The position numbers and the translations under genes were made by a program. A DNA stretch of 52,805 bases, filler included, from Bipalium vagum (Eukaryota), in the NCBI GenBank assembly GCA_037834085.1. It is 3 parts of 3 records of this genome, joined end to end, with 100 filler letters (N's around TTAATTAATTAA, not from the genome) between each part and the next. Parts side by side here need not be neighbours in the genome. Positions count along the whole stretch, not along the records: positions 1 to 16,573 come from JBBMKC010104697.1; 2 more parts are not named here. One strand, 5' to 3'. This document shows positions 111 to 52,425 of the stretch, piece by piece (the first letter of the stretch is position 1; the number at the start of each line of letters is the position of its first letter). The notes beneath the pieces are model-generated. The model was not told the DNA's origin and did no database searches. It worked only from the letters and a program-made list of their open reading frames with translations.

Positions 111-3100
111 ATAGCTGGCAAACTTCCTGAGGCCTTTAACACACTAGACTAAGTCTGTGTTTAAAGATTTCTGATCGATCAGTTTAACATCTCATTGTTA
201 AATTGTAATTTAAAGTTTGTGAAAAAGATTTATCAATAAAGATTTCGTTTAAAAATTTGTTCATTTCGTTTTGAATTATTTTACATTGTGACAGTAATTT
301 TTATATTTTGCTTGAACGTTCATCAGTAAGCCCTTGTGATATTAAGTACTTTGTTAAGTGACCTAAAAGCCGAGTTAAGTCTTTTTAAAAAATCAGTCAC
401 TTTTTAGGAACTTAACACAAGCAAGCATAATATTTATGATAAATTTTTACTACATGCTAGTGTTAGAACAAGAAATCATTAATAGATGTACCAAGTCAAA
501 TATATCGATTTTATATCCTATAACTTTGAAATATTATTGATGTGGTATATTTTAAAAAATTAAAACGATCGAAATTTCGAATTTAAATTAATATTCTGTG
601 TTTGTATAAAAAAATAGAAAAAAAGAATCATCTTAAGTAATTATTAAAACAATTGACAAATTTCGTTATCAACCTCACTTAAATTCCACTTTTCAATCTT
701 TTCATGGGACTATTTTTTTAGAAATGTATTTTTTTTACAAAATTTACAATACAATTGTATAGCCTTGCTGTGAGAGCTTCGCTCGTTTTCAGTTTTCAGT
801 GTTTTTAGAAATAAAATTTAAAATTTAGAAAATATTTTTATTGGAATGTTTTTTTTCATGGTTTGTATACAGTGTTCGCCTTTTTATTTCTTTATAACAA
901 AAATGGTGAATCATCATTATTTTCTATTCACAATCTACACCCTGAAGGGATACCAATAAAACTCAGATTCTTCAATACACTAAAATGAATTCTTCGACGT
1001 CTAAATTTATTTATTGAAAATTCCTATTTTGATTGTAATAAGCTATGTAATAAGATTTGAAAAATAAGTTATATAATGACCTTATTCTAGAAATTCTTTA
1101 GAAAAATGTTATCAACAATATATGAAATGGACAATAATAATTATTTGAGGTTTCCTATTGAAGAACCATACCAAAAAATAAAAATGCGGTTTTCCAATTA
1201 ATAGGGAATAGTGAAAATTTAAATATGGAATCTGAAATACAGAAAAACCAAATGAAGTACAATCAGAACCAACTCAATTACCAAGATATTCCCCGGGGTG
1301 ATCTCTGTCAATGATAATTGATTTAACTATTAACAAATTCCTCAATCAATTAAGCAGAGTATAATGTTGTATAATTATAAGGTATAATTACTCACGTACA
1401 TCAAGTATTTTTCAAAAAATTGGAAGTCATTCAGGAATAAAACAGGAAGCTCAATAGTTACACTTTACCAAAACAGAAATACATTACCTGTTTTACAATA
1501 AATGTTTTATAAAAATCTTTGTTTTTTTAACAGTTTTATTGGTCATATAGCATTCTGTCTTTTCAGTAAACAGTATTTCGTTTTTAATTATACTTTGTAA
1601 ATTGTAGATGGACGAAATTTTAGTTAGACTAAAACAATTTTTGGTTACTGCTCCAAATCATTTATCATTTAATATTATTAAAGGTATAAAACTAAGTTTC
1701 CTATTTTCTACACTTTGTTATTAGATAATATAGATGTAGAAACGATAATGTTACTAAACCATAAATGGATTTCCATCTAAAACCTGGATTCTTAAAGTTT
1801 AAGACAAATTTGAGAATCAAAAGTAAGAAATTGAAATAGCAATCAGAACTGTAATACTAAATATTATCAGAACCGTAATTACTAAATATTTTCTAAACGA
1901 ATCAAAAGAATCAAATATGTCAACTATTCTCAACTTTGAAATCACTAATCGAATTAAGCAGATTAAATATAAATTTAGAATGATGGTTGTATAATTTATC
2001 AATCAAGATTTACACAAATACTAATAATAATATTCATTAATAACAATGGAGTTACTAAATGAAATTTTAAGTTAGATTCCATATAACCTTAATAAAATAG
2101 ACTGCTTGTGTTCCATATTTAATCATTTGTTACACTTTGGCATTTATTTCAAGAATATTTTAGCTTGAAATTGATTTTGTGTATTTTATCAACTTTTTTA
2201 AAACTTGAAACGCCCAAGAATTATTAATAAAATAGAAGTTGGAAACAATATTAATCTAAACATTTGTTGATCTATATTTTATAAAAGTATTTGAAATATT
2301 CTGCAATGGACTTTTGTGAGAAACTGATCTAATTTTCAAAGGAAAAAATTTAAATTCCCTCTAATAACTAAAATTCTGTTTAATGATTATTTAATGTATA
2401 CATGTTAAAATTAATTTTATTTAAAAATAACCTATTTTTATCAAATGAATGTTACACTTCAATGTAAAAATTTGTTGAGATTCAGCTTATGGAGATCACA
2501 TCGAATAATCTTATTGTGCAGATTTTCATATTTCATTATATCAATAGAGATTGATATACACTTACTAGATAGTTCTATTTACATTGTTTTATTTGTTTCA
2601 AAAAATCCCCATTTATCTGAAACTGTTATTATGTTAAGAATATTAATAATTATCCTAAAATCATAATATCAAATCCAGAAATATGATTAGATCATTTCAT
2701 ATTTTTTATCCTTATTTATTACGTTTCAAGAATAAATACAAGAAAAAATACATGGTTACATTCAAAAATTGTTCAATAAGATGTAAAATTCCTCAAAAAT
2801 AAACATTTATTATTTGTGAAACAAATTCAAGTTGTTGTGGACAAAGACTTGTAAAATATGATAATATTTTTTAAATGTCTAAGACCCCAATACATTATAT
2901 CGTTTCATATTCATTTGAATTCTTTAATAATGAGATTCATCCTAAGAGTTTTCAATCTAATTTCAGATAAAGTTAAGAAAAATTATTGTTTTAATTTTAA
3001 CCAGAGGCTACGAGAGCACAGTACATCAGTTGAGGAAACTTAGAAACCAAAAAGAATGTAAATTTTTATAATTTATTATGGTAAAAATAAATAAATAAAT

Positions 3101-4271
3101 TCTGCTAATTATCCTAGGGTAGTCGAACAGTTTGTGTCAAACTATATTTTTAAGTTATGTCAATAAGTGAAATTTTTATGATTGGCTTTTACATACCTGT
3201 TAATTTTATTTGAATATATCATATATTTAATATCCTCTAAATTTCTAACATAATTCTTTCAAGTTCATTTTAATTGTTATTTCATTAAAAATAAACCAAA
3301 TTTATCAAAAATACTCAAAAAATATAGGTATTGAAGTCGAAAATCAAAAAAAATTATAAGTTCAGATATTGAACTACATAATTAGATGCAAGAAAAACTC
3401 GGAAAAAAGAAGCTATTTCATAACACCCTTAAACGATGATCTATTATAAAAGATCAAAAAGTATTTCTTTTTATTTCTAATCATCTTTTTTATTAAAGTG
3501 AAATTTTTGTTTTTTGTCATCCTAATTGTATGATGAAGCTTTTAAAAACATCCCTTTAAATTGATTTTTTGTGAAAGAGTAAGAAAACAGTTTATAATGA
3601 TTATTTTAATGGTAGCAGATAAATTCTGTAGATATCTTTAACTGGTAAAAACAGTAATGAAGAATCATATAAGTATTCTGACTTATTCTTTCTTAAAAAA
3701 TAATTTCTAGTAAAGATTTTATAGGTTACATAAACAATAATACTTATAATACATATAATAATAAAAGATCATGTACATTTAATGTTAAGATTAATGTTAA
3801 ATTAATTAGTGTCTTTTTCGATCATTAAGTCAGTGTTGCAATCAATTAAGTCACTATTGATTTTGATAATTTCAGTGTTTCATGTTTGTCAAAAAATTCA
3901 AGGTAGCAGCTCAAAAGATTTTTAGTTTTGAGATAGGTATAAGATAAACCATTCAAGTGCAAGGACAGCAAAGTATTATAAAAAAAATTAAAAGAATATC
4001 CATATTTGACTTAATCCAAAAATATTTTATAATTTTCGAGACTTTAAATCGATTTTAAGAAATTAAAAATTCAATAATTTTCAAAACAGTGAAACAATAT
4101 TACTTCAGCATAAAGGAATAATTTTTCTGATCAGCTATCAAACCAAAATAAATATTATTAGACTTCGGTTTTACAGTTTTTGCTTTTAAAATGCAGAACA
4201 ACTCCACTTAATTTTTATTAAATTCTATACAAATATTAAAAATTTCAATCTATTCCAATGATATAGTCACC

Positions 4272-4876
4272 TATAGGGTACCCCACAAAATTCCATAAAA
4301 TTAGAAATAAAATAAAAAATTTTATCTTATTTTGTTGTTTTAATTAAATTTAATTACCAGCAGATCTTTAGGAATTTATTGTCATATTCAAAGAAAACAT
4401 CCAACCTGGGGACTTTCGAATTACCCTGAAATTTTACCAGATTTCTTTGGTGCAATCAATCAAATTTAGTGTAGTGGTGTAGCAAACAGTTTTAATAAAG
4501 GATTTTATCTCCCAAACTAAGATGAGGATCTGGTAGAAAAATGCAAGTTGATTTAGTTACCAGACAATTCGTCTTAGACATTAGTGTTACACCATCAACA
4601 TCATCAAAAGGTGGAAATTTCTAGGCAGTTCAACGTATCAAAAGGGATAGTATTTTTCTGTTCTCAAAAATCCCAAATTAAAATGCTTCAGGAGGATTAA
4701 ATGCAATTATCTAACTGATGCACATAAGCAAGCACAAGAAAAATACATGGCCATGAACAAGACAAATGGAAAAAGATCTGGTTTTCGGATCAAGCAACTT
4801 TCAGTCTTCATCCACCATTTAATCTTCAAAATGAACGAATTTGTCGTGCTGTAGAAATCAAGACAGACATTCCCAG
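4272..4876 (+). mobile_element. Tc1/mariner (maT/DD37D-like) transposase relic, 5' part
   Basis: At ~4765-4876 it reads, with frameshifts, KW..IWFSDQ.TFSLHPPFNLQNERICRAVEIKTDIP, resembling maT ILFTDEKIFTxExxFNxQNDRI. A possible TIR start TATAGGGT lies at ~4272. Confidence 0.55.
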
Positions 4877-6180
4877 ACTGGCCAGCATTTGAAAACTTTT
4901 ATGAGGTTTGAACTTTTTAAGCAGATTATATAAGGAAATTTTGCGCTGATTTCAAATCAGTAATTTGTTTGTCTTAGTCACGTCTAGTTTTTATGTTACA
5001 ATAATTTGAAATTTTTATATATTATTACATAAAAACACTACGATTATATGTACAATACTGTTTATAATTGTCAAAAAAACTGCAGTAACAATATTAATTT
5101 ATTATAGATTAAACGGTGGAAGAAAGGGCTTCTTCAACGACTTTCCATTGTGTTGTGCAGCAGGATAATCTCTTTTCAGGCACCAACAATAGTCGGCAAG
5201 CACGTTCACATCCCAGCGGCCCTGATACCTTTCTTCCATAACACTAATGTCTTGATGAAATCACTCTCCTTATTTTTCGCTCATGTCACCAGAGTTGTCA
5301 GGAAATTAGTCCAAATGTGAGTTGAGGAAATGTATCTTTACAGACATACGTGCACCAAGAACCTTGAAACTCTGAAGGAGCTCTTTTACAATATGCTCAT
5401 AGTCTGAACTTCGATGGTTTCCTAGGAAATTGTTGACGATGGACTTAAATGTACGCTAAGCGTTGGCTTCATAATCTTTGTGACAATCATCGAAATCAGT
5501 ATCTTTCATGAGCTCTCTAATTTGAGGGTCATCAAAAATCCCTGCTTCCAATTTAGCCTTACTTATGCGGGAAATTTATCTTTAATGAAAGCAAAAGCTT
5601 GACCCTTCTTGTCTAGTAACGACAAAATTTTTTATTACGCCGAGCTTGATGTGCAGCGGTGGAAGCAAAATCTTCTGGGGATTGACAAGGGCATTGGAAA
5701 GAACATTATGTGAACCTGGCTGGAGATGAGGTCTTACTGGCCAATCCATTCTTATGTAGTGCGGCTCGTCTGCCCTACTGTCCCATAAACAGATGAAGCA
5801 GGGATATTTTGTATATCCACTTGTAGACCAACAATAAAAAAATAACTTTTAGATCACTACATATCATCCAGTTGTGATTTTCGTACTTTAAACTACCTAG
5901 AAGAAGCTTCATACTTACATAGTTTTCCGACATTTGCATTGAGAGGCCCACCGGAACAGAAGAGACTTTGTTACCATTATAGAGAAGTACAGCTTTCAGA
6001 CTTCTGGGTGAAGAGTCGATGAATAGGCGCTATTCTAAAGGGTTTTATATGATAAATCCATAGCTCCTATAAGGCCGCTTATATCATTGCAGTAAATTAG
6101 CCTTACTTCTTTATGCAGTGTGAAGTATTTACGAAATTCTTCTTTACGATTACGGTACCAGGAAAATGTCACTGATGGAT
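4877..6180 (-). mobile_element. Chapaev3-like (CMC superfamily) DNA transposon relic, 5'-truncated, with pseudogenic transposase
   Basis: The minus strand reads NHNWMICSDLKV...GYTKYPCFICLWDSRA...LVNPQKILLPPLHIKLG...KIHFLNSHLD...FHQDISVMEERYQGRWDVNVLADYCWCLKRD, with several stops and frameshifts. I am confident it is a transposase. The Chapaev3 label is from memory of these motifs. Confidence 0.75.
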
Positions 6181-6184
6181 GTAA

Positions 6185-6312
6185 CTGATTATTTATTGAT
6201 AGAAATTGATAACCAGCAGCATACGACCATGTGTCCCATCATAGTATGGTAAAATAGAATTGCGATTTATTGAAGTTTAACTCTTATTTTTGTTCAAATT
6301 TCTGGTGTTTAT
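6185..6312 (+). mobile_element. continuation of the maT-like relic after the Chapaev3-like insertion
   Basis: Reads DYLLIEIDNQQHT...IIVW...IAIY*SLTLIFVQ.SGV, resembling the segment QHPxSVMVWxxIxxxGKTPLIFVxxGVK that follows NxQNDRI in maT transposases. Confidence 0.45.
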
Positions 6313-6439
6313 ATGTAAGTGTAATTTTGAATAGTCAGAAATTCAACTTTTACGTGAAAAAGTAACTTTTTATATTTTACTAGGTTGTTACTTAGTGAAA
6401 CAACCAGATAAATTTATGACAATTTATTGACAAGTCCTG

Positions 6440-6900
6440 GTTGTATAAAGTAATTCAACACAACTCCTGTCTCAAAACAAAGATGAACGTTTGACCTTAG
6501 CTCATGAATGGATTAAATATCAACGCAAAAAGAGCAGTGGAAAAAATTAATTTCAGTGTATCTTAGCGCACCTACGCATAAGCAAACAATCGTTGGTAGG
6601 TTATGGATAAAAGTCATAATACAAAAAATGTCAAAGTAATCAATTTGATATGATGGTTCTCGTTATTGTGACAGTTACATGTACTGGAAAAGTTATTCAA
6701 ATATCCTGGAAAAGTATGAAGCTGTCAACAGCACAAGATTTTTAAGAAATATGATCTACAATTTTTCTCGACAAGAATCTCTCATTTTGACATCAAGGAT
6801 AGTGGTCAAAGAGAATGAAAGACCAAGTAGCATTAAAGAAACTACAATCAAAGGACGTATACTCACCCCACCTTAATTTACTAGATCGATTGATACATTT
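6440..6900 (+). mobile_element. heavily decayed Tc1-like transposase relic
   Basis: Fragments ERLTLAHEW and EQWKKLI.S resemble the Tc1 pre-catalytic motif RLxFAxxHxxWxxxWxxVxFSD. The rest is too degraded to read. Confidence 0.35.
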
Positions 6901-8182
6901 CGGCGAGTATATTCGTAGAGTTTTTATGTTTGTTTTTATAAAAGCTGAGTTTTGCAAAAGTAAGCTCAGTCAAATATAAACTCATGGGCCTCTAATTGAG
7001 TTAATTGACTTTTGAAATTTTTAAAATTCAATTTATCAATATTTTAAAAATATTGTATTTTATATATTTTTATGACAATATTTAAATTAATATTTATGTT
7101 TTACCTTTCTGAGAAATTTAAATTGAATGTATCTTAGCATATTGATCAATGGTATGGGATACTCGAAAACCCAATTCACTGTTGTTTTGGCAATAAATGC
7201 CTCGGAAATTTATTTAAAAAATGGTTATTTTGAAAAGACTGAAAAATATTCCCAAAAAAATTATATTAACCGTTTCAAAAAAAGGGAGCTATGACTTCAT
7301 GTTTAATGAAAAAATGGATTGACAATTGTTTCATATCTGATCCATTTTTTGCTAGTAAGAATACTCAGTTAGAGAATACTTCTAGAGAGGAATGGTGATT
7401 ATTTAGTTTCGTTAATTTCTTTTTAAAATCGTTGCCGTTTAGAATTTTTTCAAAACTACTTTATATCTTTGTTCACATGGATACTTTTAAAAAATTTTAT
7501 GAAATTAGTTGTGTGTGATTCTTAACAAAACACCCTTGTCCACTTGAGTCCTTCGGTTTGAAATGACCAATGTACAGAACATTATTAATGTACATGAAAA
7601 TTATCTTGAATAAAATCAGACCAACGGAGACATTATATGAAGAAATACATAATTTCACAAAGTTATTAAATAAAAATAAGGAATTATTATCAAATTTAAA
7701 ATAGAAAACATGAATTGCGATTTTTCCAACATTTGTCGTTGAGAAATCTCAATAGTTATTCACTTTACCTCATCTACACAAATTATTTTTAAAACTTCCG
7801 AAAAAAATGCAAATTCACAAAGTTTTTTCTAAGTATTAATTGTCGATTTATACTTAAGGTAAAAGAAAATTAACATTAAATTTAACCGTTAACATAATTA
7901 AGTGTACTTTCAATACATATAAAAATATTGGTTTTTCGATTTTTAATATTTGAATTAATCAATTATAATTTATAATTATTTAATAGGTTTAAGAGAGAAT
8001 TAAAAATATTTCGTAATGAAAAATGGTTCATGCTATCTTCCTCAATCAAATTTATCCCATAATTATCATTACAATAATTTTCATTATATATCATTATTAT
8101 AATTATCAACACAATAATTAATACTTCAGAAATGTAACAATTTTAAAAACGTACCAACTTTTTGCAGAAGAGGAACTATTGT

Positions 8183-8385
8183 TTGGTCACCAAGGTCACC
8201 TATCCTTACCCCTATGAACTTATATTAAGATAGTTTATTCACAACTAATTGGAAGATTTGAAGCAAAACATTGATGCATTTAAATATGTAATAATAGAAT
8301 TTTATAAAGAAACTTGCTTGTCTGTTCCTAGTAGATTGCGTAGTTGCAATGAAGCTAAAGGAGAACATGATGAAAATAAATGTTT
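8183..8385 (+). mobile_element. Tc1/mariner C-terminal relic (WPPRSPDLTP type)
   Basis: Reads WSPRSPILTPMN...LEDLKQNIDAF...CLSVPSRLRSCNEAKGEHDENK, compared with the consensus WPPRSPDLTPLDF...RLxxCIxxxGGHFE. Confidence 0.6.
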
Positions 8386-8602
8386 TTTATCTTTGTTTTC
8401 ATATATTCACTCATAATTGTAAAGCTACTCAAGTGACATTCTAAATATTGAGAGCTACCTTTAAATCTGATAATAATTAACCCAATATTTTGTTTTTATA
8501 TTTTAACAAAAATATAAAAATTTAACTAAAAATAAAAATCAATTTTTATATAATAAATATAAATATAAATATAATAATACTTAAAGATTAAAATTTTCTC
8601 AC

Positions 8603-8800
8603 CCAATGAAAAGACTAATGAAAAGAAGATTCCGAGAGCATCCAATTCCGAATTGGAAAAATCTAGTTGATTGTCATAACTACTAACAAGCTGTTTTAAG
8701 GAAAAATCGCATAAATTGATAAAACTTTTCATTTTATCAGAAACTGAATTTTCATCAACCTCTATTGTTTCAATGTCCACATTTTTCGTATCATCTGTTA
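8603..8800 (-). CDS. candidate internal exon of an unidentified host gene
   Basis: A 198-nt open segment bounded by tttttag| and |gtgaga, phase 1-1: TDDTKNVDIETIEVDENSVSDKMKSFINLCDFSLKQLVSSYDNQLDFSNSELDALGIFFSLVFSL. No family recognised, and neighbouring exons could not be phased. Confidence 0.4.
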
Positions 8801-9429
8801 CTAAAAAACATAAAGTTACTAATTATAATAAAATTTAACATAAAAAATTACATTTCGGTTGGATTGTGAAAAGATGGTGTGAGATAATAGTTTTTTATAC
8901 TATTTTTATAATGTTCATCACTAAAAGTATATGAATGATCATGATATATACGATTCAATGTAGGATATGGATTTACCCAATTGAACATTCAAAAATTTTC
9001 ATAATAATTTTTATTTAAAACAAATTTATCAAATAACTTTTTTTTTCATTTAAGTTTAATGAAATCTATTAATAATAAATTTATAATAAATTAATAATAA
9101 ATCTATCATTAATTTGTCAAACTATTTTCCTGTAAATATAAATCTCAACAGAATATATCTAAATGTCTTGATTGAAGTATAAATTAATAAAGACAAATTT
9201 GATTATATATAAATTTTTATGAAATTTCTTGCAGAAATCGTCAATATTTTAAAATTTTTTTAAAAAATCAAATCATACAATTGTTATTTGCAAAATGGTG
9301 GAAATTAATCAAATTATCAACAGAAATTTTGAGCTTCCAAGGATCTAAATATTCATTGTCTTGGAAATCTTTTTTTAAACTTTTTTTCTATATAAAAACT
9401 AAATGACTAAAATCTTTAGTCTAAGTATC

Positions 9430-9870
9430 TTCTTACGGAAAGGTGTTTTTCTGCAGAACGAAAATCTCAGACATCATATCACAATTATTGGATTACTGGA
9501 TCAACCAGTATTAAAGTCTACAGTGGTCATAAAAGAACAAACAGAATTCCGCAGAAGAAGTAGCATCCAAGCAAAGAGTTGATGGAGAACCATAACGAGT
9601 CTGCAAAGGCTACCAAAAATTTGAATAAAATTAAGGAAAACTTAAGTACAAACCAGTAGCAGAATTTAAAGCTGAAATAGCGATTTTTGTACCCTACACA
9701 AAGAAGATAAGAACAAGCTGAAGTCAAATTAGAATCAAGACGTTTGAATAGCCTACATCAAAATAAAGCAAGTGAACAACTAAAACCCACTCTCTATTCA
9801 AAAAACAACAATATATACAGACTTCGGTGGAGAACTAACTACTAAACAAACGCAGAAAGATCCAAATAAT
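9430..9870 (+). mobile_element. possible decayed LTR-retrotransposon (Gypsy-like) integrase C-terminal region
   Basis: A-rich, GC-elevated block with fragments QTSYH..IG and EFKAEIAIFVP...KNKLKSN, loosely resembling the integrase tail Fx(x)GDxVxV...KLxxKW. Confidence 0.25.
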
Positions 9871-10653
9871 ACAGTACATGCGCATTTAGTTTTGTTGAAA
9901 ACGTAATTTTATTTATTTTATTTTATATTTAACTACTTGTTGCACTTTGTGTAACAAAGTTAAAATTATTGATTATTATATAACCATTTGTATAAAATTA
10001 GTTCATAGCTTGTAATCCCAGTGTTAACAAGACTAGAGCTTCTTGAAATAAAGTTTTTATTCATAAATTAAATAAAGCAGTTAGATTTATAATTAACACA
10101 ATTTGATATTTGAGTTTATTTTTCTTTTATATGTAAGGGTTTGGTTTGACGCTTACTGCGAGACCTAATCTCGAAAATATAAAAATGCTAACGCTATTAA
10201 TATAGGTTAGAACTGGGCTCACCGACTACGTCAAAGGTAGTGTAACAAATAGGTGTTCTAAGATACGAACTACGTCTAATTAAATTAACTAAAATGACAC
10301 GTTTTTAGTTACAAAAATATATTTTGTAATACAAATACAACTCTTATCACAGTTATAATTGATTAATTAAAGTCTTCTTGGTTTTACGATAACCGAAGAA
10401 GCCCTGATGTTTAAAAATGCGTATTCTGTCGCCTAGAGCGAAGCAGAATCGAATTGCCAAGAAAACAAAGAAAAGAAATGAGAAGATTAATAAAAAGAAC
10501 GTATTGCAGAGTATTTGCTCTGAACACGTTAATGATTATTTAGTTAATATTATTTTTCTCAAAAAGAGATCGATGTTTTAAATAGCCGAAGCGTATTTAT
10601 TACCTTTTTATTATTACCAGCTTAACTGGTCGATGCGATGTTAATTGCGAATT

Positions 10654-10697
10654 GAATGAGAAAACCAGGAGCTTATAAACTCCTGATTTTCACATTC
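10654..10697. repeat. 44-bp imperfect palindrome
   Basis: gaatgagaaaaccaggagcttataaactcctgattttcacattc is self-complementary with 3 mismatched pairs. Confidence 0.85.
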
Positions 10698-11849
10698 CTG
10701 ATCTCTTGATTGGTGGAAAATAAAACTTTCCATTAATAGAATAATATTTTTTTTATTTATATTAATTAAAAACGAATATATAATTTAATTATTATTATTT
10801 TTTATAAAATATAAAAGGACATAAAAAGAGTTAAAATATAAAAGAAAGTAAGCCTAACAAGGCTTTTTCATGCACATTTTTAAAATCAAAATGTAATCAA
10901 AATGTTTAATAATTGTCAATAATGAGCTTTGGAAAATCATCCTCCACAAGCTCTTGCTCTGGTTGTAGCGATTCCGGCTCCTTTGCGTGCTTTGAATTTG
11001 AGTTGATTGGTGCTGGGATCTCTTTTTCTATAGATTCTATTTCTATTTTTATTAAAACAGGCGTGTCTTGTTAGACAAAACACAGTTTGTTAATATTAAC
11101 TAAATAAAAACTCAGACCAGGATCTGAGGATTATATAATTATTTAATCTCCATTTCTTATACTTCTTTCTTTTTTATATTTTTATTTCACACGTTAAGTA
11201 GGGCGGTGAAATAAATTATTTTTCTTTGCTGAGGACCTCTGAGCCTAAGAGCGAGAGGTTTTTTCATAATAAATAACTTTAATCAATAATCTAATGAATC
11301 AATCAGGGACGATATCACTGCAATGTAATTTAATACTTTATTTTAATAAAAATAAAAGTTTTGATAATCAATTCATTATCTTAGTAATTTTAAATAATAA
11401 ATTCGAACAACCATTAAGCAACATTCGCCGTTAAGACCAAAATCACACTAAGCTCCACCTGCTTACATCCCTTTTTAGAATCTTAACATACGAATAAATT
11501 TTAAAAATGATTAATTTTCTTCTGAATATTAACACTTGTATTGTTTTTATCCTATTCCTTGCGATTTTTTATCTCAGTTTATCAACTATTTTTATTTAAA
11601 ATTTAATTAAGAGTTTATTCTTAGTTATTGTTTTATTATGGAAATCCTTAAGTCAACATTACTTAATTTAATTATAAATTTATTCACAGTCAACAAAATA
11701 AATAAAAATTCTTTTTTACCTAAAATATCAAAATATTAATCAAAGTAAATTAAATTCAAATAATTCAAGCTATTGAAAATCAAAAACAAAATTCAAATAA
11801 TTTTTTTTCATATGAATGATTCTTTGTATCTTCTTGCTATCGATTAGAT

Positions 11850-14014
11850 TAGACATGTTGCCACTCAAATCAATATATATAGTAAAAATTTTTAAAAAAA
11901 AGATAATAAATGTTTTGTTTATTCTGTAATTACTTATTTACATCCAACAATAGATCATAGCAATAGAGTAAATAATTATGCTCAATATATAATTGAATTA
12001 AATTTAAATGATATAAATTTTAATAAACAAAATAATATTTCAGTAAATGAAATATTTGAAATTTAAAAAAATAAAATAATAACACAGATTCATATAGAAC
12101 ATTTTATAACTCATCCAACTATAGAAGATAGAACATATAATTTATTATTATATAAAAAAAATTATGTATTATATAAAAATATGCATATCTTTGCTAATAA
12201 AAAATTGAATAAAATCATCTTTGATTAAATTCTTATCGTTTAGAAAATTTATTAAAAGAACATTTTTAGAAAAGAACAATAATTTATAAAATCAAAAACA
12301 ACATTTCATTATGATGAATATTGTCAATTTAATAATTATTACTTTAAAAGTAAAATTCCATTTGTATTATTTGGTGATTTTGAAACGTGGAATTTATATG
12401 AGGAAAATTCAGATATAAATCAAAACCATTATCAATAGGAATTTATATTAAATCGAATTATCCTGAATTATATGAATCAAGATATTTTGAATGAATTTAT
12501 TAAGAGAATAAATGAAATAAACAAACATAGTAAAAATGCAAATGATTATTACAAAGATGAAATAATTTTATCTGAAGAAGAAAAAATAATTATTCAAATT
12601 TTAGAAAATGTATTTATTGTAAGAAGGAATTACAAGATGATAAAGTTAAAGATCATGATCATTTAAATGGAAAATATAGAGGAGCAGCTCATAATAAATG
12701 TGATATAAATGATAAGTCAATTAAAAAATTTTATTTTCTAATTTTATTTTATAATGGATCTGGATATGATTTGTATTTTTTTTCAAAGAATTAATGACAA
12801 AACATATAAAAAAATATAATTCCACATACAGATGAAGATTATATAAGTTTTAGTTTTAAGAATAAAAATTTCTAGATTCTTTAAGAATGTGTTCCAATAT
12901 TTCTGTTAAAGCTATGGGAGAAAATTTATTAAAATCTAATAAATTTTAAATTTTAAAATCATATGAATTAAAAGCTAAGAAATCATTTTATCCTTATGAG
13001 TATACTAAAGGTTCTAATTATAATGAAGTTGATAAAATAATATCAAATAAACTAGATTTTAAGATAAATGATTTTAATAATAAAACAAATGGTTCTTTAA
13101 CTGAAAATGATTTAAAATGATATAAGAATTTTAATAATTTTAAAGATTATATGTTTTATTATTTGAAATCAAATGTTTTAATATTTTAATAATTTTTGAT
13201 ATTTTGAAAATTTTAGAGAAGCATGTTTAAAATTCTATGACATAGATCCTTGTTATTGTTATTCAACTCTAGGTTTAAGGTGAAATATAGGATTCAAATT
13301 TACAAACGTAAAATTAAAATATTTTATAATACATACATGATTATTTATTGTTAATTGAAAAAGGTATAAGAGGTGGAATTTACTCTGTACATATAAATAG
13401 ATATATTAAATTAAACAATAAAATAACAAATAAAGATTTTCATTATTCTTATGAACCTTCTAAATATGAATGGAATAAAGCTATACAGAATTTTAACAAG
13501 AATAAGAACTTTGACTTTAAAGAAAGATATTTAAAATATCATGATGCTAATAGTTTATATTCTAGGTGTATGACAAAATGTTTATGAACAGAGGAAATGT
13601 ATGAAGATGAAAATTTAATTTATAAAAGAACTGAAAGATCAAAAATATTTACCGAAAATATAGTAGCATGTCACATGAAAAAATCCTAATATATAATTTG
13701 ATAACTTTAATTATATAGAATTCTTTGTATTAGAATATTCTAAATTTATAATATATGATGTTGTTTATAATTTTTTAGAAAAAGAATTGTTTGGAAAATA
13801 TGAAATTCATTTTGGTGATACAGATTCATTGTTAATTGAATTTATTTTAGATGAGAATGAAACTCTTAAGGTTATAAATTCCTTTGATGATAAACGTTTA
13901 ATTGATAATAATGGAATAAATATTTTTCCACCTGGATATTCAATTAAATGTAATAATTGGGTTTATAGATTAGAAGTTATTTCTGGAAATTATGAATGTA
14001 TATGTTTACGATAA
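11850..14014 (+). pseudogene. Polinton-type protein-primed DNA polymerase B pseudogene
   Basis: Motifs occur in order: DNKCFVYSV..LHP (11902), KIPFVLFGDFE (ExoI, ~12352), KVKDHDHLNGKYRGAAHNKC (HNH/endoVII-like, ~12642), FYNGSGYD (ExoII), FLDSLRM, FYPYEY, DIFENFREACLKFYDIDP, IEKGIRGG, YHDANSLYSRCM (motif A), HFGDTDSLL (motif C). There are many stops and frameshifts, and motif B was not found. Confidence 0.9.
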
Positions 14015-14339
14015 AATATATTAATCTAAACTTTTAATGTAATAAATACTTTATTTATATAAAAATGAGTGAAATAGATAAAAAAAATTTGAATTAAATA
14101 AAATTTTATATTTAAAGGATTTATATTCTGATTTATCAGATTTTCAAATTTCAAGTTTATAAAATATTTATGATTATTTAGATATTAAGTATTTTATATT
14201 TCCATGTTAAGAATAGTAATAGTTTATTTATAAAAATATAATTATTAAAAACGTAAATTTAAAAATATTTATAAAAACATTCTAGAGGTTTTGTCTAACT
14301 TTTGTTTCAATATTAAACATTTTTCCTTATTTAATTTAA

Positions 14340-14748
14340 TGGAAATTCTTCTGCAAATTTTTTTGTGAACATAAACTTTTACTAGTTTTATATCCTTTAT
14401 TTTCTTTTGTTGGATTATATTCAATTTTATCTGGTATCTATCTAAATATTTCCCCATCATTGTTTTTATCAATCATTATAAAATTTGTTATAGAATTTGA
14501 TTGACTTACATTTTAAATTGTTTCTATTTCAGTTGATCCTAATTTCAAAGTTGTATTAGAAAAAAATATGGAAAGAAGTTATTTTGTAAGGTTTTATTTT
14601 GGTTATCTTTTATATCTAGAATTTAAATTTCAAAAACTAAAATTGATTCTGATAAATCTAAAACAATTTCTGATTGTAAAATAGAAAAAGCTAGATTTCC
14701 ATTATTATTTAAATTTGTTGCAGTTGTTAAAGAAATAACTAAATAGTC
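14340..14748 (-). pseudogene. Polinton/adintovirus-like major capsid protein, N-terminal remnant
   Basis: Reads TTATNLNNNGNLAFSILQSEIVLDLSESILVFEI*...TLQNNFFPYFF/SNTTLKLGSTEIETI*NVSQSNSITNFI. This fits the MCP N-terminal pattern LNNxxxIxFxIxxxDxxxxxSESYLxxE...LxNNxxxxLFxxxxxxLxxxEIE. Confidence 0.6.
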
Positions 14749-14749
14749 A

Positions 14750-15384
14750 CATGGTGAAAAATTGGAAATTTTGGTCTTTCAATGATTCTAGGTCCTCTTG
14801 AAACACTATTCAAAGGAAAGTCTTTCTTAATATTATATTAATTCTTTCTACCATTATAAAATCCTCCTTCAACAATATTACAATCAATCATGATTTTATT
14901 TATCTTTGAAATTTTCACTGGTTTTGATTCATAATCACCTGTATAATGTTTGTTTTGAAATCCTAATAATTTTCCGATTGGATTTTCGGAAAAAGAAACA
15001 ATACAACCTTTATATATATTTTCATTACATAGCTTGAAGAAATGGAAATACGATTAATTGATACATAATACCTTATGATTTTAATAGTTCTACGTAATTC
15101 TTTTATGCTTTTAAGTTCATTCTCAGTATATGTAGATATATAAAAAATTTCATGTTTCTGGAATTATCTTTATTTTTCGAGATACTTTTTTTCCTTTTGA
15201 ATCTGTAACAACTACATCTATTCTATTATAAATATGTTAGGTTAGCCAAACACATCCCTGTTAACCATTGTAAAAATTATATGTTATTATCCATTTTTTA
15301 ATATATATTTTAATCAGAATCTATATCAAATGTAACTTTCATTTTTTCACAAAAATCATTAGTGATACTTTTTGATTTTTTCAT
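14750..15384 (-). pseudogene. Polinton/adintovirus-like minor capsid (penton) remnant
   Basis: Reads YESKPVKISKINKIMIDCNIVEGGFYNGRK...FPLNSVSRGPRIIERPKFPIF, matching SxxPVxIxxINxIxIxCNIVxGSYxNG...FxPxVxPGYKIIExP. An ATG lies at 15384. Confidence 0.6.
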
Positions 15385-15814
15385 TTATTTAATATTTTTA
15401 AAATTAAATGATCTACATTATCATGATTTGCCTTCATAGCAGACAAATATTTTTTTAAAGTTATAAATTTATAAGTAAATATTTCGGTTTGAAATTTTTA
15501 TATTCTTGTCCATCTCGTCTTAATTTTATATTTAGGTTTTATTCCGTTTTTATATTTTTAATGTAAATACTAAACTAGATTTTGATAATTTTATTATTTG
15601 AAGATAATTACTCAAATATTTTACTTTAAATGGCGTTTCTCTATTTGGATTAAATTTTCCTTCTGATATTAATTTTAAATCTTCATTTAATTCAAATAAT
15701 TTTTCATCGTTTGGTTTTTGATCATTTGAATTATTATATTTTAATATTTTTTTTTCATTTTCTTTAATAATTAAAAATGGAATTTCATTTATTAATAATG
15801 TGTTACCTATAATT

Positions 15815-16480
15815 GATGGAGTAATGGTTGATTCCTTACTACTGAGGAGGATTTGGGTAATACGTTGTGTAATGTAGAAGGAAGATTTGATAGAGTAATA
15901 AAGAAAGGAAAACGGTTTAAAAGAGCATCGTTGTTGGAATGTTTGATAAATTAGGTGGGGCCCGTTATTTTAGCTCAATAGACCTGGGTAATAGCTATTA
16001 ATGGTTATCCAAGTGAATTGGACAAATATTTGAAAAAAAGATTGTCTTTTCTACTAAAGATGGTCAGTACTGTTTTAAAAGAATATCATTTGGAATTGCA
16101 ACGGCATCAGGAACGTTTCAAGAAGTAATGACAAAAGTCATCAGCAAAATCAAAGGAGCTATATTACTTATAGTAAATCTATAGTATATCTAGATGATAT
16201 TCTGGTTTGGAAAGAATTACATTTTATTTTGGAAAATCGTTGCAATGTATTAAATCAAGTATAAATGAGCATTAAATAAGATGGTTTAAGAATTAATCCG
16301 TAGAAATGTCAGTTATTAAAGGAGGAGGTCATATTCCTCGACCATATTATAAACAAAGATGGTGTTCAAACAGACCTATCGAAAATTAATGATATCTGAA
16401 CGTTTTTGCAACCGAAATGTGTAAAAATCCTAAGGAGCGTTTTGTGTATCAGCAACTAGTATAGGCAATTCATAAAATTG
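15815..16480 (+). mobile_element. Ty3/Gypsy LTR-retrotransposon reverse transcriptase relic
   Basis: Reads MFDKLGGARYFSSIDLGNSY...FSTKDGQYCFKRISFGIATASGTFQEVM...VYLDDILV...KCQLLKEEVIFLDHIINKDGVQTD, with stops and frameshifts. Confidence 0.9.
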
Positions 16481-16573
16481 TATGTGTGGAGACTACGTTC
16501 AACAAACCCTACAGCTCAATCAAAACAACCAAAACCAAGTGGATCAACTCAACCGAACCCTGCGACAGAGTCA

Positions 16574-16673
16574 NNNNNNNNNNNNNNNNNNNNNNNNNNN
16601 NNNNNNNNNNNNNNNNNTTAATTAATTAANNNNNNNNNNNNNNNNNNNNNNNNNNNNNNNNNNNNNNNNNNNN
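16574..16673. other. artificial scaffold gap (44 N + TTAATTAATTAA + 44 N)
   Basis: An exact 100-nt construct, repeated identically at 33493-33592. Confidence 0.95.
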
Positions 16674-18019
16674 TTTAAAAAATGAAGGTCAAACTGTACT
16701 TACATTTTAATTGTTAATGTAAATAAACAATCAATTGTAAATATTGATATTTAGCGGCGTATATTAAGTAAAAAAATATCAAATTATCAAAACTACTAAA
16801 AAACGCACTGACTTTTTGAACAACCCAATATTTTAAAATTCTCATATTAAAATATTGGATTTTCATTTTTGTTTAAATTTTAGCAATGGAGCACAAACTG
16901 ACAAAGAAATTCGATAAAATTACTTATATATGAATGGAAATTATCACCCACAGCATCGGAAAATGCTGAAAACAATAATTTGGCAAGATATAGCTAATGA
17001 GTGCACTATTATGCGTTCCCAAAAGTACATTAGGAATATGATATTACCACCCATTTGGTGTTCATAAAGAAATACCGCTATAGTTTTGATGTCGTTCATC
17101 TCATATTCAATTGCTTAAAGAAAATTTGGATATTTTTTCTTTATTAAACATTTTTGTTGATTTATCTTTTTAAAAGATTTCGCTTTAAGATATAAACAAA
17201 TTTATATTAATAAAACAAATTTTCATTTAACACTTCATGAAAACCGCCATGATTTCTTTACAACCTTATAAACAAGTTGATTGAACTATTATTAACTATA
17301 CTTATATATTATCTCAAATTATATTTTAACAAGATCCATTAAAAATAATTATCATTTTATTACCATTGTCTTTCTCTGGTTAAGACGTTTAGATATTAGG
17401 ACAGGCAAGATTGTCTATCAGATTCTATGGAAATCTTTTAAAAATAATTTTACACAAATTGACCGATTTAAGAATATTAACTGTGAATTCAATGACTTCA
17501 ATATCTAAGTCACATAATATTGTAAATGATAAATTAAAAATATTATTTATATATAATTGATATCATTTTAAATAATATGAAAAAAATTATCCTTTATAAT
17601 TCTCCATGAAAAATTACTATATTATTTTAAATTGAATATTATTCAAATGGGTAACATGACGCTTTGAGTCAATATTTGCATTTTCAATTTTAATATTAAA
17701 TTGCCTTTAATGGGAAATTATTTTCAATGTTTATTTTACAAATTAATTAGTCAGAATAACCCAATAATCAAATAGTAAAATAAAATAATAATGTCAATAT
17801 TTATATTAACCAAACCTGCTTTGAACCTGACCTCAATATGTTTATGATAAATAATTCATTCTTATTCTCACTTCTAAGGATATATAGAATTCAAAATCTA
17901 TATTCTACTTCTTACGTTTTACTTATGTTAGTATTGATATAAACCAAGCTCACGAAGACCTGACTCTAAATAGTTTAGTTTCCGCTAATGGATATGAGTC
18001 AAAACACAATTCTAAATCT

Positions 18020-23169: not shown

Positions 23170-24159
23170 ATGACCATGAATTCTGAGAAAATTAGAATAT
23201 GTATGTATTATGAGTTCAAGCTGAACTATTCCGCTGCACAGGCAACTCGTAACAGCATGCAAGCATTTGTTAAGAACAGTATTACAGAGCGTATGGTTCA
23301 GAGTTGATATGTACCTTTTCGTTCCGGAGATTTTTTGACTTCAAGATAAACCTCGTGAAGGACACCAATCAGTTCTTGACGATGAAGTTTTGAAAATGCA
23401 TGTTAGGTGGGTTTTACACAAATTGAATGAAAAAATAAATACCAGTGTCTGTGTATCTGCACTGCTTTGGTACTACGAAACAACAATGACCCTTTTTGAA
23501 CAGAATTATTACCAGTGATGAGAAGTAGATCACTTATAACAATTCTTGTGGCTCTGAACAATGGCTTGATGCGAGTAAGCCTGCAGGGAAAGGGGCAAAA
23601 TGAGACATTCATTTTAAGAAGACAATGGTAAGTGTCTGGTCGTTCATGTCTTTAATCTACTTTGAGTTTCTTAAACGAGGCGAAACCATAACATCTGATG
23701 TCTACTGCAAATTGCTTGATAAAGTTCATCAAAACCTTAAAATTCAGCAAGCATCATTGGTCACCAGAGAAATTCCAATGCTCCTGAAAGATAATGCAAT
23801 ACCTCACACGTCAAAATTAACTGTACAAAAATTGGAAGACCTCGGCTACGAAACTCTTCATCATCCTACTTACTCATCAAACATCGCCCCTATAGATTTC
23901 CATTTATTCAGGTCTCTGTCAAACTTTCTTGCAAGCTCGCCTTTTAAAAACCAAGACGAGGTGGAAAATGCCCTTCGCGGATTCATTAATTCCCAAAACC
24001 AGAAATTTACAGATCATCAATTGAAATGCTAGTGGAATGTTGGCTACTGGTTATAGATGATGGTGACTATTTCAATGAATAAATTTTATTATATTATTTA
24101 ATTATGTTTGTTCAAAGTTTGTGTCATTAAAGCTGATATTACTTTTTAACAACCTAATA
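23170..24159 (+). mobile_element. mariner element (cecropia/Hsmar1-like), pseudogenic transposase 23170-24083 plus 3' TIR
   Basis: Reads MTMNSEKIRICMYYEFKLNYSAAQATRN...RIITSDEK...MVSVW...LLKDNAIPH...HHPTYSSNIAPIDFHLFRSL...DGDYFNE*. It ends in the TIR-like tttaacaacctaata. Confidence 0.92.
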
Positions 24160-47079: not shown

Positions 47080-48153
47080 GATACGAGTAATAAATCAATA
47101 AAAAAGCAATATAACAGAAATAATTGAAAGGATGCGATCAAAAATGACATTCCTTGATACATTCTTTCAGAAGAATTAAAAACGTAAAGATCAGCAATAA
47201 CAGATTGGCCATGGGAAAGTATTTCAAAAAAAGAAGTTCTTTTCTGCTATCACATGGCTTTTTTAGCTGGAGAGCAGAAGAAATTATATTGTCACATATA
47301 ATCCACATGCAACATCGTGCACCTTGCTAAGTTATTTGATAGTAGTCATACCATCATTCAACATCATTTGTATGGTATTGGGAAATTCAGAAAACTTGAT
47401 GTATAGGACGTATAGACCTCAATCACCAACACCGGATTGACGGATGCAAGATATTGTTATGATTGGTTGAATAAAATCGTAACGGCTGATAAAAGGTGGT
47501 GTTACTACTCCAGTATTTCTGGCAAAAGAAGACAGTTGGTCAACGGTAAAAATCCACAGCCTCACCCAAAGGCTAACCGATATCACAAAAAGATAATGGT
47601 TTCTGTGTGGGGGTGTATGAATGGCATCATTTATTGGGAAATGTTAGAACGAAATCAGACCGTAAATACCGAATTATACTGCCAAAAATTGCAGCGAGTT
47701 TCAGATGCGATCACACAAAAAATATTCAGAAATGAAAAAGATAATTCTACTCCACGATAATGCTAGACTACATATTGGTCATTTCAACGTGAAAGAGTTC
47801 CTAAGTGGGGGTTGGGTGTTCTCCCATACCCGCCTTATTCATCAGATCTGGCTCCAACACATTTCAATTTATGCTATGGAACTACGCAGAACTACCTAAA
47901 TTCTATGACCTTCGCAAATTATGATGAATTGAAAGCAGCAGTGGGTGAATGTTTTGAAAGTAAAAAACGTATTTTTATAACCAGGGGATTATTGATCTGC
48001 CACGTTGTTGGAAACAAGTGATAGAGAACAATGGCAATTATATTACTGACTGATATCGACTTTGTTGTTGTAATATTACATTGTATTATAAATTTTCCGT
48101 TTGATATTCGTCTATGACTACGTTTTGTTCGGAAACTTTGTTTCCAACCCAAC
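47080..48153 (+). mobile_element. mariner element with pseudogenic transposase and 3' TIR
   Basis: Reads WLNKIVTADKRWCYY...HKKIMVSVW..MNGIIYWEML...LYCQKLQRV, then IILLHDNARLH and VLPYPPYSSDLAPTHF, split over three frames. It ends in aactttgtttccaacccaa. The 5' boundary is approximate. Confidence 0.9.
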
Positions 48154-50040: not shown

Positions 50041-52425
50041 CATATACTCCAATAATTATCCGTACTATAATAATATAAATAAAAAAATAACAATTTCACT
50101 AAAGAATGAAAACATTTTTTATAAAAGTCTACTGTTTCCAAGTATAATAGCTATCCTAGATATATAAAATAAGAATAAGAATTGTAGACATAAATTATTT
50201 TTGATTGTTCGAAAATGAGTAATACAAAAATTAACCATACGAATTCATTTATTATAAGCTTACAAAATAATAATTAATTGGACCACCTCTATTCTTGATG
50301 ATCATTTTACATCTCATATTCAGCGAAGTAACCAATTTTTTGCAGAAATCTGGGTTAATTTGTTGCCATTCTTCCAAGATATACTTTTTCAGCATGTCTT
50401 TTTCAGTAATTTCTCTCCCTTTGAGTTTTCTCTTCATAAAAGTTCACAAATTTTCAATTTGGTTCATGTCCGGTGATTGCCCAATCCATTTCAAGATATT
50501 TACACCGGATTGATTAAGCCAATGTGTAATAATTTTGGCCGCATGTTTTGGGTCTCAGTCATGCTGGAATTTGAAGTCAGTCTCAAGACCAAGGCGTTGC
50601 ACAGATTCCAACAAATTTTTTTCTAAAATTTTCAAATAATTTTCCTTATGCATTATTCCATCTATGAAGACTAAATTTCCAACACCCAAAATCGTTAAAC
50701 ATCCCCAGACCATAACCGACCCTTTACCATGCTTAACTGTCGATTGAAGACATTCTAATTTCATTTCTTTTCCGGGTTTTCACCAAACAGTAACCCTTCC
50801 TTCTGACCCAAATACTTTAAATTTACACTCGTCTGACCAAAGAACTTTATTCCAATCGGTTGAAGAGTTTAACAGTTCTCTTACCCATGCAACTCGTGCT
50901 TTCTGATTCATCTTCAAAATTAAAGCTATCTTCCGTGTCATCCACCCATTAAAATAGTCACTTCTGAAACAAATGTAGAAAAATTTGTAAGAATACAAGA
51001 ATTTAAAAATTAACTAGTCTTACTTACATTAATAAAAAGTTTAATCAAAGATTTCTTTACTATTTAATATAAATACTGTAAAATCCCGAGTATAATCTGC
51101 AGCTAATAAGTACATAAAGGCAATATTTTTGAGTTGCAGCTAATATGATGTGCAGCTTATACAACTGAAAAACAATTCAAATCGAAGATAAGATTATTTA
51201 TTTCAATTTTCAACATCATACTCCTCAAAACCATCACACTTTTCATTGTCAGTAAAGGGAAATTTTCTAGTAATTCTACAATGTTTGGATCAGACTCGTT
51301 CACATTCATTTCATTTTCTTCAATTTCAATAACATCGTCGTCTTCACCGAATGCAATACGAAAACCATTCGAAATGGTTGAAAGGTTAACATCTTCCCAA
51401 GAGGAAACAATCCATTCGAAAATAGTATTTCAGTGAGCAGCTTTTAAACTTGGCCATCTGAAATTCCCAATCTTTCGGCAATTGTTGCTTCGTGGTAGGC
51501 TGTCGAACACAAATATTCTTGCGTTTCATAAAATTATCAGACCATTGAGAGCTCGCGACAAATCCTTCAATTTTCATCTCTTTGGTAATTACTTGTGCCT
51601 GTAAACGAATTCGAACAACCGATACTTGAAGTTTTCGTTCACGTTGAATTAAGATCCATTCGTGTAATTTCGTTTCCAATTCCTGATATCTAGCGTTAAA
51701 CCACGCAAAGATCTTCGATTTGGATTCATTGCTTTGATAACAGACTCTTGGGCGATCCATCGTCGAATAACAGTTTCATTAATATCATATCGTCTTGCAG
51801 CCTCCCGTATGTTTCATAACAGACGACATAATTCAATAATTTCTTTTTTCTTTGCTGAACTACAAGATCTTCGTTGTTTCTTTTGTTTTTGTTCAGAATC
51901 GTTATCCATTTTAATCAAGTATTCAAAACAGTGCAATAGGCAATGTAAACAATATATACGATTAAAACAAAATGGTTATTGTCGCGATGAAATTTTTTTT
52001 TAATGATAGGTTGCTGATTTTAAAATCATGTGTTTTCAACGTAAATGGTGCAGCTAATACGTGCTGCACTTTATACGACTAAAAAATACATTTTTATAAA
52101 ATGTCATCTGCAGCTAATACGCGCTGCAGCTTATACTCGGGATGTCACAGTATAATGTAAATTAAAAATGTAAAATGTAAAACAAATAATTAAAATTTAA
52201 GATCGTATGGATATTTATTGTGTATTAATATCAATAAAATAATTTTAATTACGATAATTTAAATATTTTCTTGATAACAATTCGACAAAAACATTTATAA
52301 ATAAACGCATTGAAAATTAATGTATTATTAACACCTAAAATTTATTTCATAGGTGTTGATTTTCCATACAGAAATTATCTTGAAAATATTTACATATCAT
52401 CATACGGATAATCATTGGAGTTATC
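50041..52425 (-). mobile_element. Tc1-family (DD34E) element nested in the mariner; transposase relic 50960-50265
   Basis: Reads DWNKVLWSDECKF...TVKHGKGSVMVWGC...FQHD*DPKH...QSPDMNQIENL...NRGGPINY. Left TIR TA|catatactccaataattatccgta matches the right end (reverse complement) TA|gataactccaatgattatccgta. Confidence 0.85.
51076..52150 (-). mobile_element. pogo-family element (Brinker-like DBD + CENP-B HTH), DDE domain deleted, nested in the Tc1
   Basis: 28-bp TIRs ctgtaaaatcccgagtataatctgcagc and ctgtgacatcccgagtataagctgcagc, both TA-flanked. The ORF relic 51909-51203 reads NIREAARRYDINETVIRRW...ELETKLHEWI...FVASSQWSDNFMKRK, then jumps to EWIVSSWEDV...NGF and an acidic tail. Confidence 0.92.

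Follow-up and report, generated by a model that had tools for sequence, protein, structure and literature searches.

Analysis of the window, a stretch of 52,805 nucleotides of Bipalium vagum DNA, revealed what is very probably a defunct copy, with internal deletions, of a Polinton/Maverick-type DNA virus element from a family that is likely to be high-copy in the genome of this animal. A protein-primed DNA polymerase gene (pPolB) on the + strand converges on a minus-strand penton remnant and the probable start of a major capsid protein (MCP) gene, in agreement with the first-pass annotation, which had described a Polinton/adintovirus-type element eroded by deletions. The genes are identified by homology, and their order and strands, as well as the stops, frameshifts and deletions, were observed directly. 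This damage runs across polymerase, penton and MCP; the element is a remnant and not a functional Polinton. The following features were distinguished:

10012 to 11276, no strand assigned: very high-depth repeat or repeats left of the polymerase
11887 to 14014, + strand: decayed protein-primed DNA polymerase gene
13611 to 13628, + strand: deletion junction, with about 145 to 175 residues including motif B lost
13846 to 13871, + strand: second deletion junction, with about 120 residues after motif C lost
14480 to 14733, - strand: probable N-terminal 90 or so residues of a double-jelly-roll MCP, in two frames
14742 to 15026, - strand: remnant of the penton (single-jelly-roll minor capsid protein)
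15027 to 15384, - strand: presumed N-terminal half of the penton gene
15387 to 15800, - strand: coding remnant on the upstream side of the penton, probably belonging to the element
15933 to 16342, + strand: reverse-transcriptase relic of a separate retroelement

The polymerase gene was located by tblastn with P0002 and P0036 (the nearest intact polymerase), by profile mapping and by frameshift-tolerant alignment. Its homology-matched part extends from 11887 to 13945 on the + strand. The segment from 11887 to 13846 is collinear with a profile built from 45 intact or partial relatives (segments with E values of 1e-23 to 0.03), the C-terminal part from 13871 to 13945 matches weakly (E 0.41), and the final reading frame ends at a stop at 14012-14014. 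The frameshift-tolerant alignment scored 152, against a maximum of 20 among 12 shuffles, which bears out the earlier description of a decayed protein-primed PolB on this strand. Identity to the nearest relative found is 44% over 332 columns. When 1,041 ORFs of 120 loci were used as tblastn queries, 198 of the 199 hits fell within 11899-13855 (+) and one on the penton, the rest of the window receiving none; because the 120 loci were chosen by a motif from the window polymerase gene, the 110 hits in the bin with that motif are circular.

Six in-frame stops lie inside profile-matched segments of the gene, which also shows about six frameshifts and has lost sequence in two large deletions. At the first junction the profile jumps from position 853 to 997 or about 1030 and so passes over motif B (position 991), without which no working polymerase can come from this copy. 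The loss of motif B had been noticed before, whereas the second deletion (profile 1102 to 1223), which takes the greater part of what follows motif C and leaves only the weak match downstream, had been overlooked. The same applies to the first 258 or so positions of the profile, for which no match was found in the window; no N-terminal terminal-protein domain was detected in the window polymerase either. The segment 11887-12090 matches (E 1.8e-7) a profile region that aligns to a viral OTU in the structural model of a relative, with a middling Z score of 6.4. The OTU Cys motif is present in the window, and the His position has no match.

The penton remnant was identified by phmmer (E 2.2e-11 in a search of 1.84 billion proteins), by a profile (E 1.4e-22) and by a family model. 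It spans profile positions 113 to 208 of 242, i.e., the C-terminal half without the last 34 or so positions, contains one stop inside the profile-matched segment and shares 51% identity with its best relative. The best solved fold match of the family model is the mavirus virophage penton (PDB entry 6g42; E 4.4e-13, TM 0.51, 14% identity), followed by adenovirus and then Sputnik pentons. A word-based search of proteins with this piece as query gave no match. The first-pass annotation had assigned a whole penton lacking its end; the missing end and the C-terminal half stand. The N-terminal half is presumed from size and place, with a gap of 361 nt available for about 112 missing residues, and similarity at 15030-15384 was not significant (58 of 200 shuffles scored as high).

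The MCP start is probable, as suggested by a profile of 120 PF21738 proteins, which is narrow, by tblastn (best E 6.5e-4) and by hhalign (probability 74%). The profile match covers positions 25 to 114 of 426 (E 0.002 and 0.09), and its score is marginal, at 30.1 against a maximum of 28.1 among 98 other window tiles. All 46 MCP HSPs, which derive from 38 of 120 similar queries, lie at 14400-14800 on the - strand, directly 3' of the penton. The remainder of the MCP was not detected, and the stretch 14340-14480, previously counted as capsid sequence, has no match. PF21738 itself did not match window pieces in the Pfam search, and an Atlas search with a 41-residue MCP stretch returned no usable match, from which neither absence nor novelty follows. 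Another MCP-like score, with E 0.2 at 14027-14173, was taken as chance.

Upstream of the penton, the coding remnant at 15387-15800 is marked by an open frame (15550-15969), by an AT skew of -0.23, with the sign seen in the capsid genes, and by a summed contig depth that resembles the capsid region. It probably belongs to the viral element. Pfam, Atlas and relative-locus ORF searches gave no match here; for the ORF at 15553-15969 the lack of a usable Atlas match is evidence of neither absence nor novelty. Profile, locus-ORF and Pfam searches did not support a supposed resemblance between 15553-15800 and the C-terminus of an integrase.

Relatives of the element, of which the first-pass annotation had suggested that intact ones could exist elsewhere in the genome, are numerous in the sequencing run that holds the window DNA (run X1, a single study and possibly the source of the assembly). 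In this run, 11,596 contigs align to 9000-16570, most of them at less than 99% identity, and the family is probably high-copy in the host genome. Relatives of polymerase, penton and MCP occur together on contigs that look intact and also encode a packaging ATPase and a protease, and in some cases an integrase. One such contig (L121) matches the polymerase, penton and MCP profiles together with Pox_A32 and the adenovirus protease, and on another (L002) polymerase, penton and MCP end are accompanied by rve integrase (E 2e-7) and Pox_A32. The structural model of P0036 matched phi29 polymerase best among solved structures (Z 19.1, rmsd 3.3, 524 aligned), the next solved match reaching Z 11.0, and the viral OTU match lies at its N-terminus. 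Its best viral structural matches were bidnavirus-like, adintovirus and MELD polymerases; a sequence search with P0036 found no match in the PDB. Scans of viral contigs for related loci found nothing. Pfam searches of the window, in whole frames and short pieces, detected no polymerase or capsid family. This null result is uninformative, because the intact polymerase and penton relatives are missed by Pfam as well. Likewise DNA_pol_B_2 (PF03175), against which the first-pass annotation had proposed to check the polymerase, matched neither the window nor the intact relatives.

The limits of the element differ from those first drawn. The left limit at 10600 is not supported, as 10600-11850 shows no Polinton homology. 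The repeats at 10012-11276, also devoid of Polinton gene homology, reach a summed contig depth of 22,000 to 147,000, against 2,400 to 13,200 over the viral genes, values that do not represent copy numbers. On the right, the supposed Gypsy boundary comes down to sub-threshold RVT_1 matches (E 2.8e-4 and 5.8e-4; 21 and 20 bits, with the Pfam cut-off at 29.6), which we take, from motif resemblance, to be of Ty3/Gypsy type. This relic runs towards the gap at 16574, and the repeat scan found no LTR pair for it. Profile searches of the window for integrase, ATPase, protease, PLA2 and pX gave no match (best E 0.13 to 1.5), the ATPase and protease profiles comprising only 3 to 8 sequences. The best rve integrase score (E 0.21 at 11130-11354) was taken as chance. 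No credible terminal inverted repeat was found in the window, and AGTAGT, which we presume to be the Polinton end motif, is absent from 8500-17500. ACTACT at 15838 was rejected as an element end: there are five such hexamers in 9 kb, it has no partner, and it sits where the reverse-transcriptase relic seems to begin. The window contains no Rfam families or tRNAs. Missing genes are expected in this copy, since it is cut by the reverse-transcriptase relic and the assembly gap.

The absence of integrase and terminal repeat matches in the window would also suit passive capture of a Polinton-like or MELD-type virus without an integrase, or recombination of two elements, in place of one self-integrating Polinton. 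The two closest polymerases lie on short contigs (L056 and L032; 6.5 and 3.6 kb) on which no capsid gene was seen, summed depth is unequal between the polymerase (2,400 to 6,700) and the capsid side (3,000 to 13,200), and module exchange among adintoviruses is described (PMC8502044). However, the integrase profile was built on ORFs that came from 17 of the 120 motif-bearing loci, most of the 120 being too short to show an integrase; the thousands of related contigs found for polymerase, penton and MCP are consistent with repeated integration; and the truncation of this copy makes gene loss expected. Passive capture or recombination is thus improbable. Derivation of the polymerase from a linear cytoplasmic or mitochondrial plasmid, with capsid resemblances arising by chance, is much less probable still. 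Beta-type polymerases were formerly binned with mitochondrial plasmids, as noted by Starrett et al. (PMC8502044), and the polymerase tree held no eukaryotic plasmid polymerase. Against this origin, the penton match is strong and extends to structure, and the polymerase family co-occurs with capsid genes and has a probable vOTU-like domain, said to be absent in mitochondrial plasmids (PMC11161782). P0036 matched none of 72,556 plasmid or 50,697 phage records, collections that are essentially prokaryotic.

That the element is not dead, its stops and frameshifts being short spliceosomal introns of about 48 nt or assembly errors, is equally hard to credit. The host does have such introns (GT..AG introns of 46 to 48 nt in its tropomyosin gene, at 28545-29783), but six stops in the polymerase and a single one in the penton fall within profile-matched segments, a GT..AG pair of 40 to 120 nt is lacking in 7 of the 10 gaps that separate such segments, and introns cannot account for the loss of motif B. 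In addition, run X1 contigs agree with parts of the region at 0 to 3 differences, although none spans it. The intron or assembly-error reading is therefore largely refuted.

For the dead Polinton/Maverick-type copy, the intact relatives and the literature suggest an ancestor of 15 to 20 kb that would have replicated with its own polymerase primed by a terminal protein, integrated by means of a retrovirus-like integrase and packaged its DNA into an icosahedral capsid with an A32-type ATPase and a maturation protease. Neutral decay would have followed integration. The window copy cannot make a working polymerase or capsid and is most likely now repeat DNA without a further role. It is conceivable, though doubtful, that it represents a deep-branching, AT-rich Polinton lineage with hundreds of copies and intact capsid-coding members, and thus the host's own undescribed adintovirus-like virus.

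As a fossil the copy is real but ordinary, such fossils being common and well described. It shares with animal Polintons/Mavericks (PMC8097293; PMC8502044) a protein-primed PolB, with a possible vOTU-like domain, a single-jelly-roll penton and a probable double-jelly-roll MCP. Unlike them, it has no detected integrase, ATPase, protease or terminal repeats in the window, and its ends are unplaced, so that no target-site duplication could be assigned. Vertebrate Mavericks show the same decay by stops, frameshifts and deletions, and 96% of their loci are degraded fossils (Barreat and Katzourakis 2021, PMC8097293). With 20,702 integrase-linked pPolB1 genes in 960 genomes (bioRxiv 10.1101/2023.08.22.554363), the window copy is one more fossil of a class present in hundreds of animal genomes. 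It is nevertheless a useful pointer, because run X1 suggests a large, divergent host family to which standard Pfam scans are entirely blind. Should there be intact copies, this host could also serve to examine whether particles are made by animal Polintons, which is stated as an open question (PMC8097293).

Polintons/Mavericks were already reported in planarians; Mavericks have expanded in Dugesia, and Polintons are piRNA-silenced in Schmidtea (PMC8532177; bioRxiv 10.64898/2025.12.11.693146). The present family resembles these, by description and not by sequence, in being probably abundant in an AT-rich, transposon-rich flatworm genome. Its intact relatives lack a pfam03175 (DNA_pol_B_2) match, as do Beta-class adintoviruses (Polinton group 1; PMC8502044); the likeness to Beta derives from this absence, the polymerase tree having no named Alpha or Beta references. 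Two features argue against the Beta class on the same source: a PLA2-like gene, described there for Alpha-type virion modules, is present in two intact relatives, and the top fold matches are bidnavirus-like polymerases, linked there to Alpha. Exonuclease motifs I to III are kept in the window polymerase, whereas the mavirus polymerase is reported to lack most of the exonuclease domain (PMC11161782).

Analysis of the window with Pfam polymerase profiles, a check suggested in the first-pass annotation, revealed no polymerase family. A stop-free stretch of 64 residues matched the related protein P0002 (E = 2.3e-10), whose cluster includes the nearest intact polymerase, P0036 (1,336 residues). 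In tblastn, P0036 gave ordered matches on the plus strand at 11899-13843 (lowest E = 8.5e-17). A motif taken from the window's polymerase was used to gather 120 loci, and their 1,041 ORFs produced 199 HSPs with E ≤ 1e-3, of which 198 lie on the plus strand at 11899-13855 and one at the penton (minor capsid) remnant; no other part of the window was hit. The 110 HSPs in the motif-holding bin are circular because the loci were chosen by that motif; the others are not. The polymerase profile was built from 45 relatives, and the region contains the following features.

11887-13611, plus: polymerase profile positions 259-853
13628-13846, plus: polymerase profile positions 1030-1102
13871-13945, plus: polymerase profile positions 1223-1247, weak (E = 0.41)
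14605-14733, minus: major capsid protein (MCP) profile positions 25-67 (E = 0.002 among 1,410 chunks)
14480-14623, minus, next frame: MCP profile positions 67-114 (E = 0.09)
14742-15026, minus: penton profile positions 113-208 of 242
15387-15800, minus: frame with no family assigned, adjoining a reverse-transcriptase relic

The jumps in the polymerase map indicate two deletions. One, between positions 853 and 1030, removed motif B (position 991), as the first-pass annotation had proposed; the other removed most of the region past motif C. Profile positions 1-258, the expected site of the terminal protein, had no match in the window. Frameshift-tolerant alignment scored 152 (shuffle maximum 20, n = 12) with six frameshifts, and six in-frame stops lie within the profile-matched segments. 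The ordered matches, the profile map and this score confirm the proposed plus-strand PolB.

In a search of 1.84 billion proteins, 33 matched the peptide at 14751-15032 with E ≤ 0.001 (best E = 2.2e-11, 51% identity). The penton profile, made from 19 full-length proteins after exclusion of low-complexity matches, fragments and longer fusions, has a partly circular score because the family was gathered with the same peptide. The fold was an independent step: the model of the penton relative P0003 (pLDDT 88) matched the mavirus penton 6g42 best (E = 4.4e-13), followed by the pentons of adenovirus and Sputnik, and also PLV, virophage and adintovirus proteins. The final ~34 profile positions are absent from the window. 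At 15027-15384, the expected site of the N-terminal half and of the right length, similarity was inside the shuffle range (58 of 200 scored as high). Profile and fold thus uphold the penton claim for the C-terminal half, without its end, and not for the N-terminal half. Two penton relatives of 400 to 423 residues, P0015 and P0022, have a phospholipase A2 (PLA2)-like domain fused at their N terminus (E = 7e-11 and 0.003), whereas this domain is a separate ORF in loci L002 and L121.

The MCP of locus L059 had 2,478 relatives, and PF21738 (double-jelly-roll domain) was found in all of the best 120. Searching these 120 closely similar proteins against the whole window (E ≤ 0.05) yielded 46 HSPs from 38 queries, every one at 14400-14800 on the minus strand (best E = 6.5e-4). 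The first MCP piece reached an hhalign probability of 74%. The frameshift-tolerant score of 30.1 was above 60 shuffles (maximum 16.9) but only slightly above 28.1, the top of 98 other window tiles. Judged by position, strand and collinearity, 14480-14733 is a probable, not proven, MCP start; the MCP remnant of the first-pass annotation survives in this part, with marginal support. The penton match stops at 14742 and the MCP match starts at 14733 near profile position 25, abutting ends which suggest that a single deletion probably removed the end of the penton together with the beginning of the MCP.

Profiles of integrase, ATPase, protease, PLA2 and pX gave no match in the window (best E = 0.13-1.5). 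Homology matches at 10130-11850, 13950-14400 and 15030-15830 were no commoner than chance, and a search for a terminal inverted repeat found none; the proposed left limit at 10600 therefore lacks support. A reverse-transcriptase relic does lie to the right, running towards the gap, with RVT_1 below the cut-off (E = 3e-4 to 6e-4). No LTR was seen beside it, and it is therefore a neighbor rather than the demonstrated Gypsy boundary.

Locus L121 (17.6 kb) has profile matches for polymerase, MCP and penton together with Pox_A32, adenovirus protease and PLA2-like domains. L002 has polymerase, penton, the MCP end and Pox_A32, with rve (E = 2e-7) slightly short of the cut-off. These gene sets probably represent the parent type of the element. 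Of the 120 motif loci, 8 had MCP matches, 6 had penton matches (L058 being a duplicate of L002) and 17 supplied integrase ORFs. Just 17 of 121 loci were at least 9 kb long. L121:1-17634 looks like an intact viral contig and additionally carries a DUF2738 gene.

The model of P0036 residues 290-1336 (pLDDT 84) was compared with 48,161 solved chains, and phi29 polymerase was the top match (Z 19.1, rmsd 3.3, 524 aligned; next Z 11.0). Its N terminus resembles viral OTU proteases (Z 6.4), and in a viral library bidnavirus-like, adintovirus and MELD polymerases ranked highest (18-25% identity). These matches fit the TP-vOTU-EXO-PALM layout of polinton polymerases described in PMC11161782. In a midpoint-rooted tree without named references (344 columns; 22 of 47 rows, each covering at least 60% of columns), the window polymerase clustered with L056 (44% identity) and L032 (41%) at 100% ultrafast bootstrap, a grouping that may partly reflect a long branch and AT bias. 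No capsid gene was seen on the L056 or L032 contigs. A 697-residue ORF with Cys/His motifs (L056:44-2134, plus) converges on P0036; Pfam gave no convincing family for this ORF, and it does not match the window.

Introns do not explain the breaks: stops sit inside profile-matched segments, 7 of 10 gaps between matched segments have no GT..AG pair of 40 to 120 nt, and motif B is missing altogether. A plasmid origin of the polymerase is disfavored by the presence of a penton and by the genes that accompany the polymerase in its relatives. The element is a real fossil Polinton-type fragment, as first read and largely correctly, but of an ordinary kind. The core frames of this copy are interrupted, and it is classed as a remnant; its ancestor would have worked as published Polintons and adintoviruses do. 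The general definition of Polintons is reviewed in PMC6431247. Adintoviruses are defined by OTU-PolB, integrase, ATPase, hexon and penton, with pfam03175-type Alpha and divergent Beta polymerases, and a degraded Beta relic is described from the human genome (Starrett et al., PMC8502044). Among 3,511 vertebrate Maverick loci 96% are degraded, and certain hosts carry solely defective copies, in hundreds (Barreat and Katzourakis, PMC8097293). Jeong et al. reported 20,702 pPolB1 genes across 960 genomes from 30 phyla (10.1101/2023.08.22.554363). In Schmidtea, piRNAs target Polintons (PMC8532177), and a Maverick expansion is described in Dugesia (10.64898/2025.12.11.693146).

Of the sampled words of the DNA, 47% occur in one sequencing run, X1, a single study that is possibly the source of the assembly itself. 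On 9000-16570, 11,596 X1 contigs were placed (1,239 at ≥99% identity, 2,799 at 95-99%, 4,116 at 90-95% and 3,442 below 90%); none of the listed pieces spans this region. Summed depth, which is not copy number, was 2,400-13,200 over the viral genes versus 72-104 at 9253-10011; single contigs with zero differences had depths of 17-29. Contig identities and summed depth point to a diverged multi-copy family. That the host holds a divergent high-copy Polinton lineage with intact members seems unlikely. At 10012-11276 summed depth was 22,000-147,000, far above most of the viral region; this segment (32% GC at 10130-10720) matched no ORF family, no Rfam family and no tRNA, and may represent either an independent high-copy element or a terminus of the Polinton family.

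The surroundings (window GC ~25%) contain the following features, of which the tropomyosin gene and the hormone-receptor-domain exon point to an animal as host.

23604-24029, 32529-33487, 47416-48018 and 51389-51775: mariner, Tc1/Tc3 and pogo/Tigger-type transposase relics (Pfam Transposase_1, HTH_Tnp_Tc3, DDE_3, HTH_Tnp_Tc5)
25488-25703, minus: exon encoding a hormone-receptor domain (PF02793, E = 6e-8), probably from the gene for a secretin-class GPCR
28545-29783, plus: divergent multi-exon tropomyosin gene (Pfam Tropomyosin, E = 4e-4, one exon)

By eye, 27063-27305 and 50783-51013 resemble the transposase relics. Overlapping open frames at 5585-6238 (minus) are GC-richer (up to 38%) and had no Pfam match; they may represent a decayed transposon-derived protein. 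The gaps at 16574-16673 and 33493-33592, each a 12-base TTAATTAATTAA spacer flanked on both sides by 44 N, are artificial scaffold linkers and not biological sequence. The tropomyosin gene, which may be flatworm-like, has several GT..AG introns of 46 to 48 nt.
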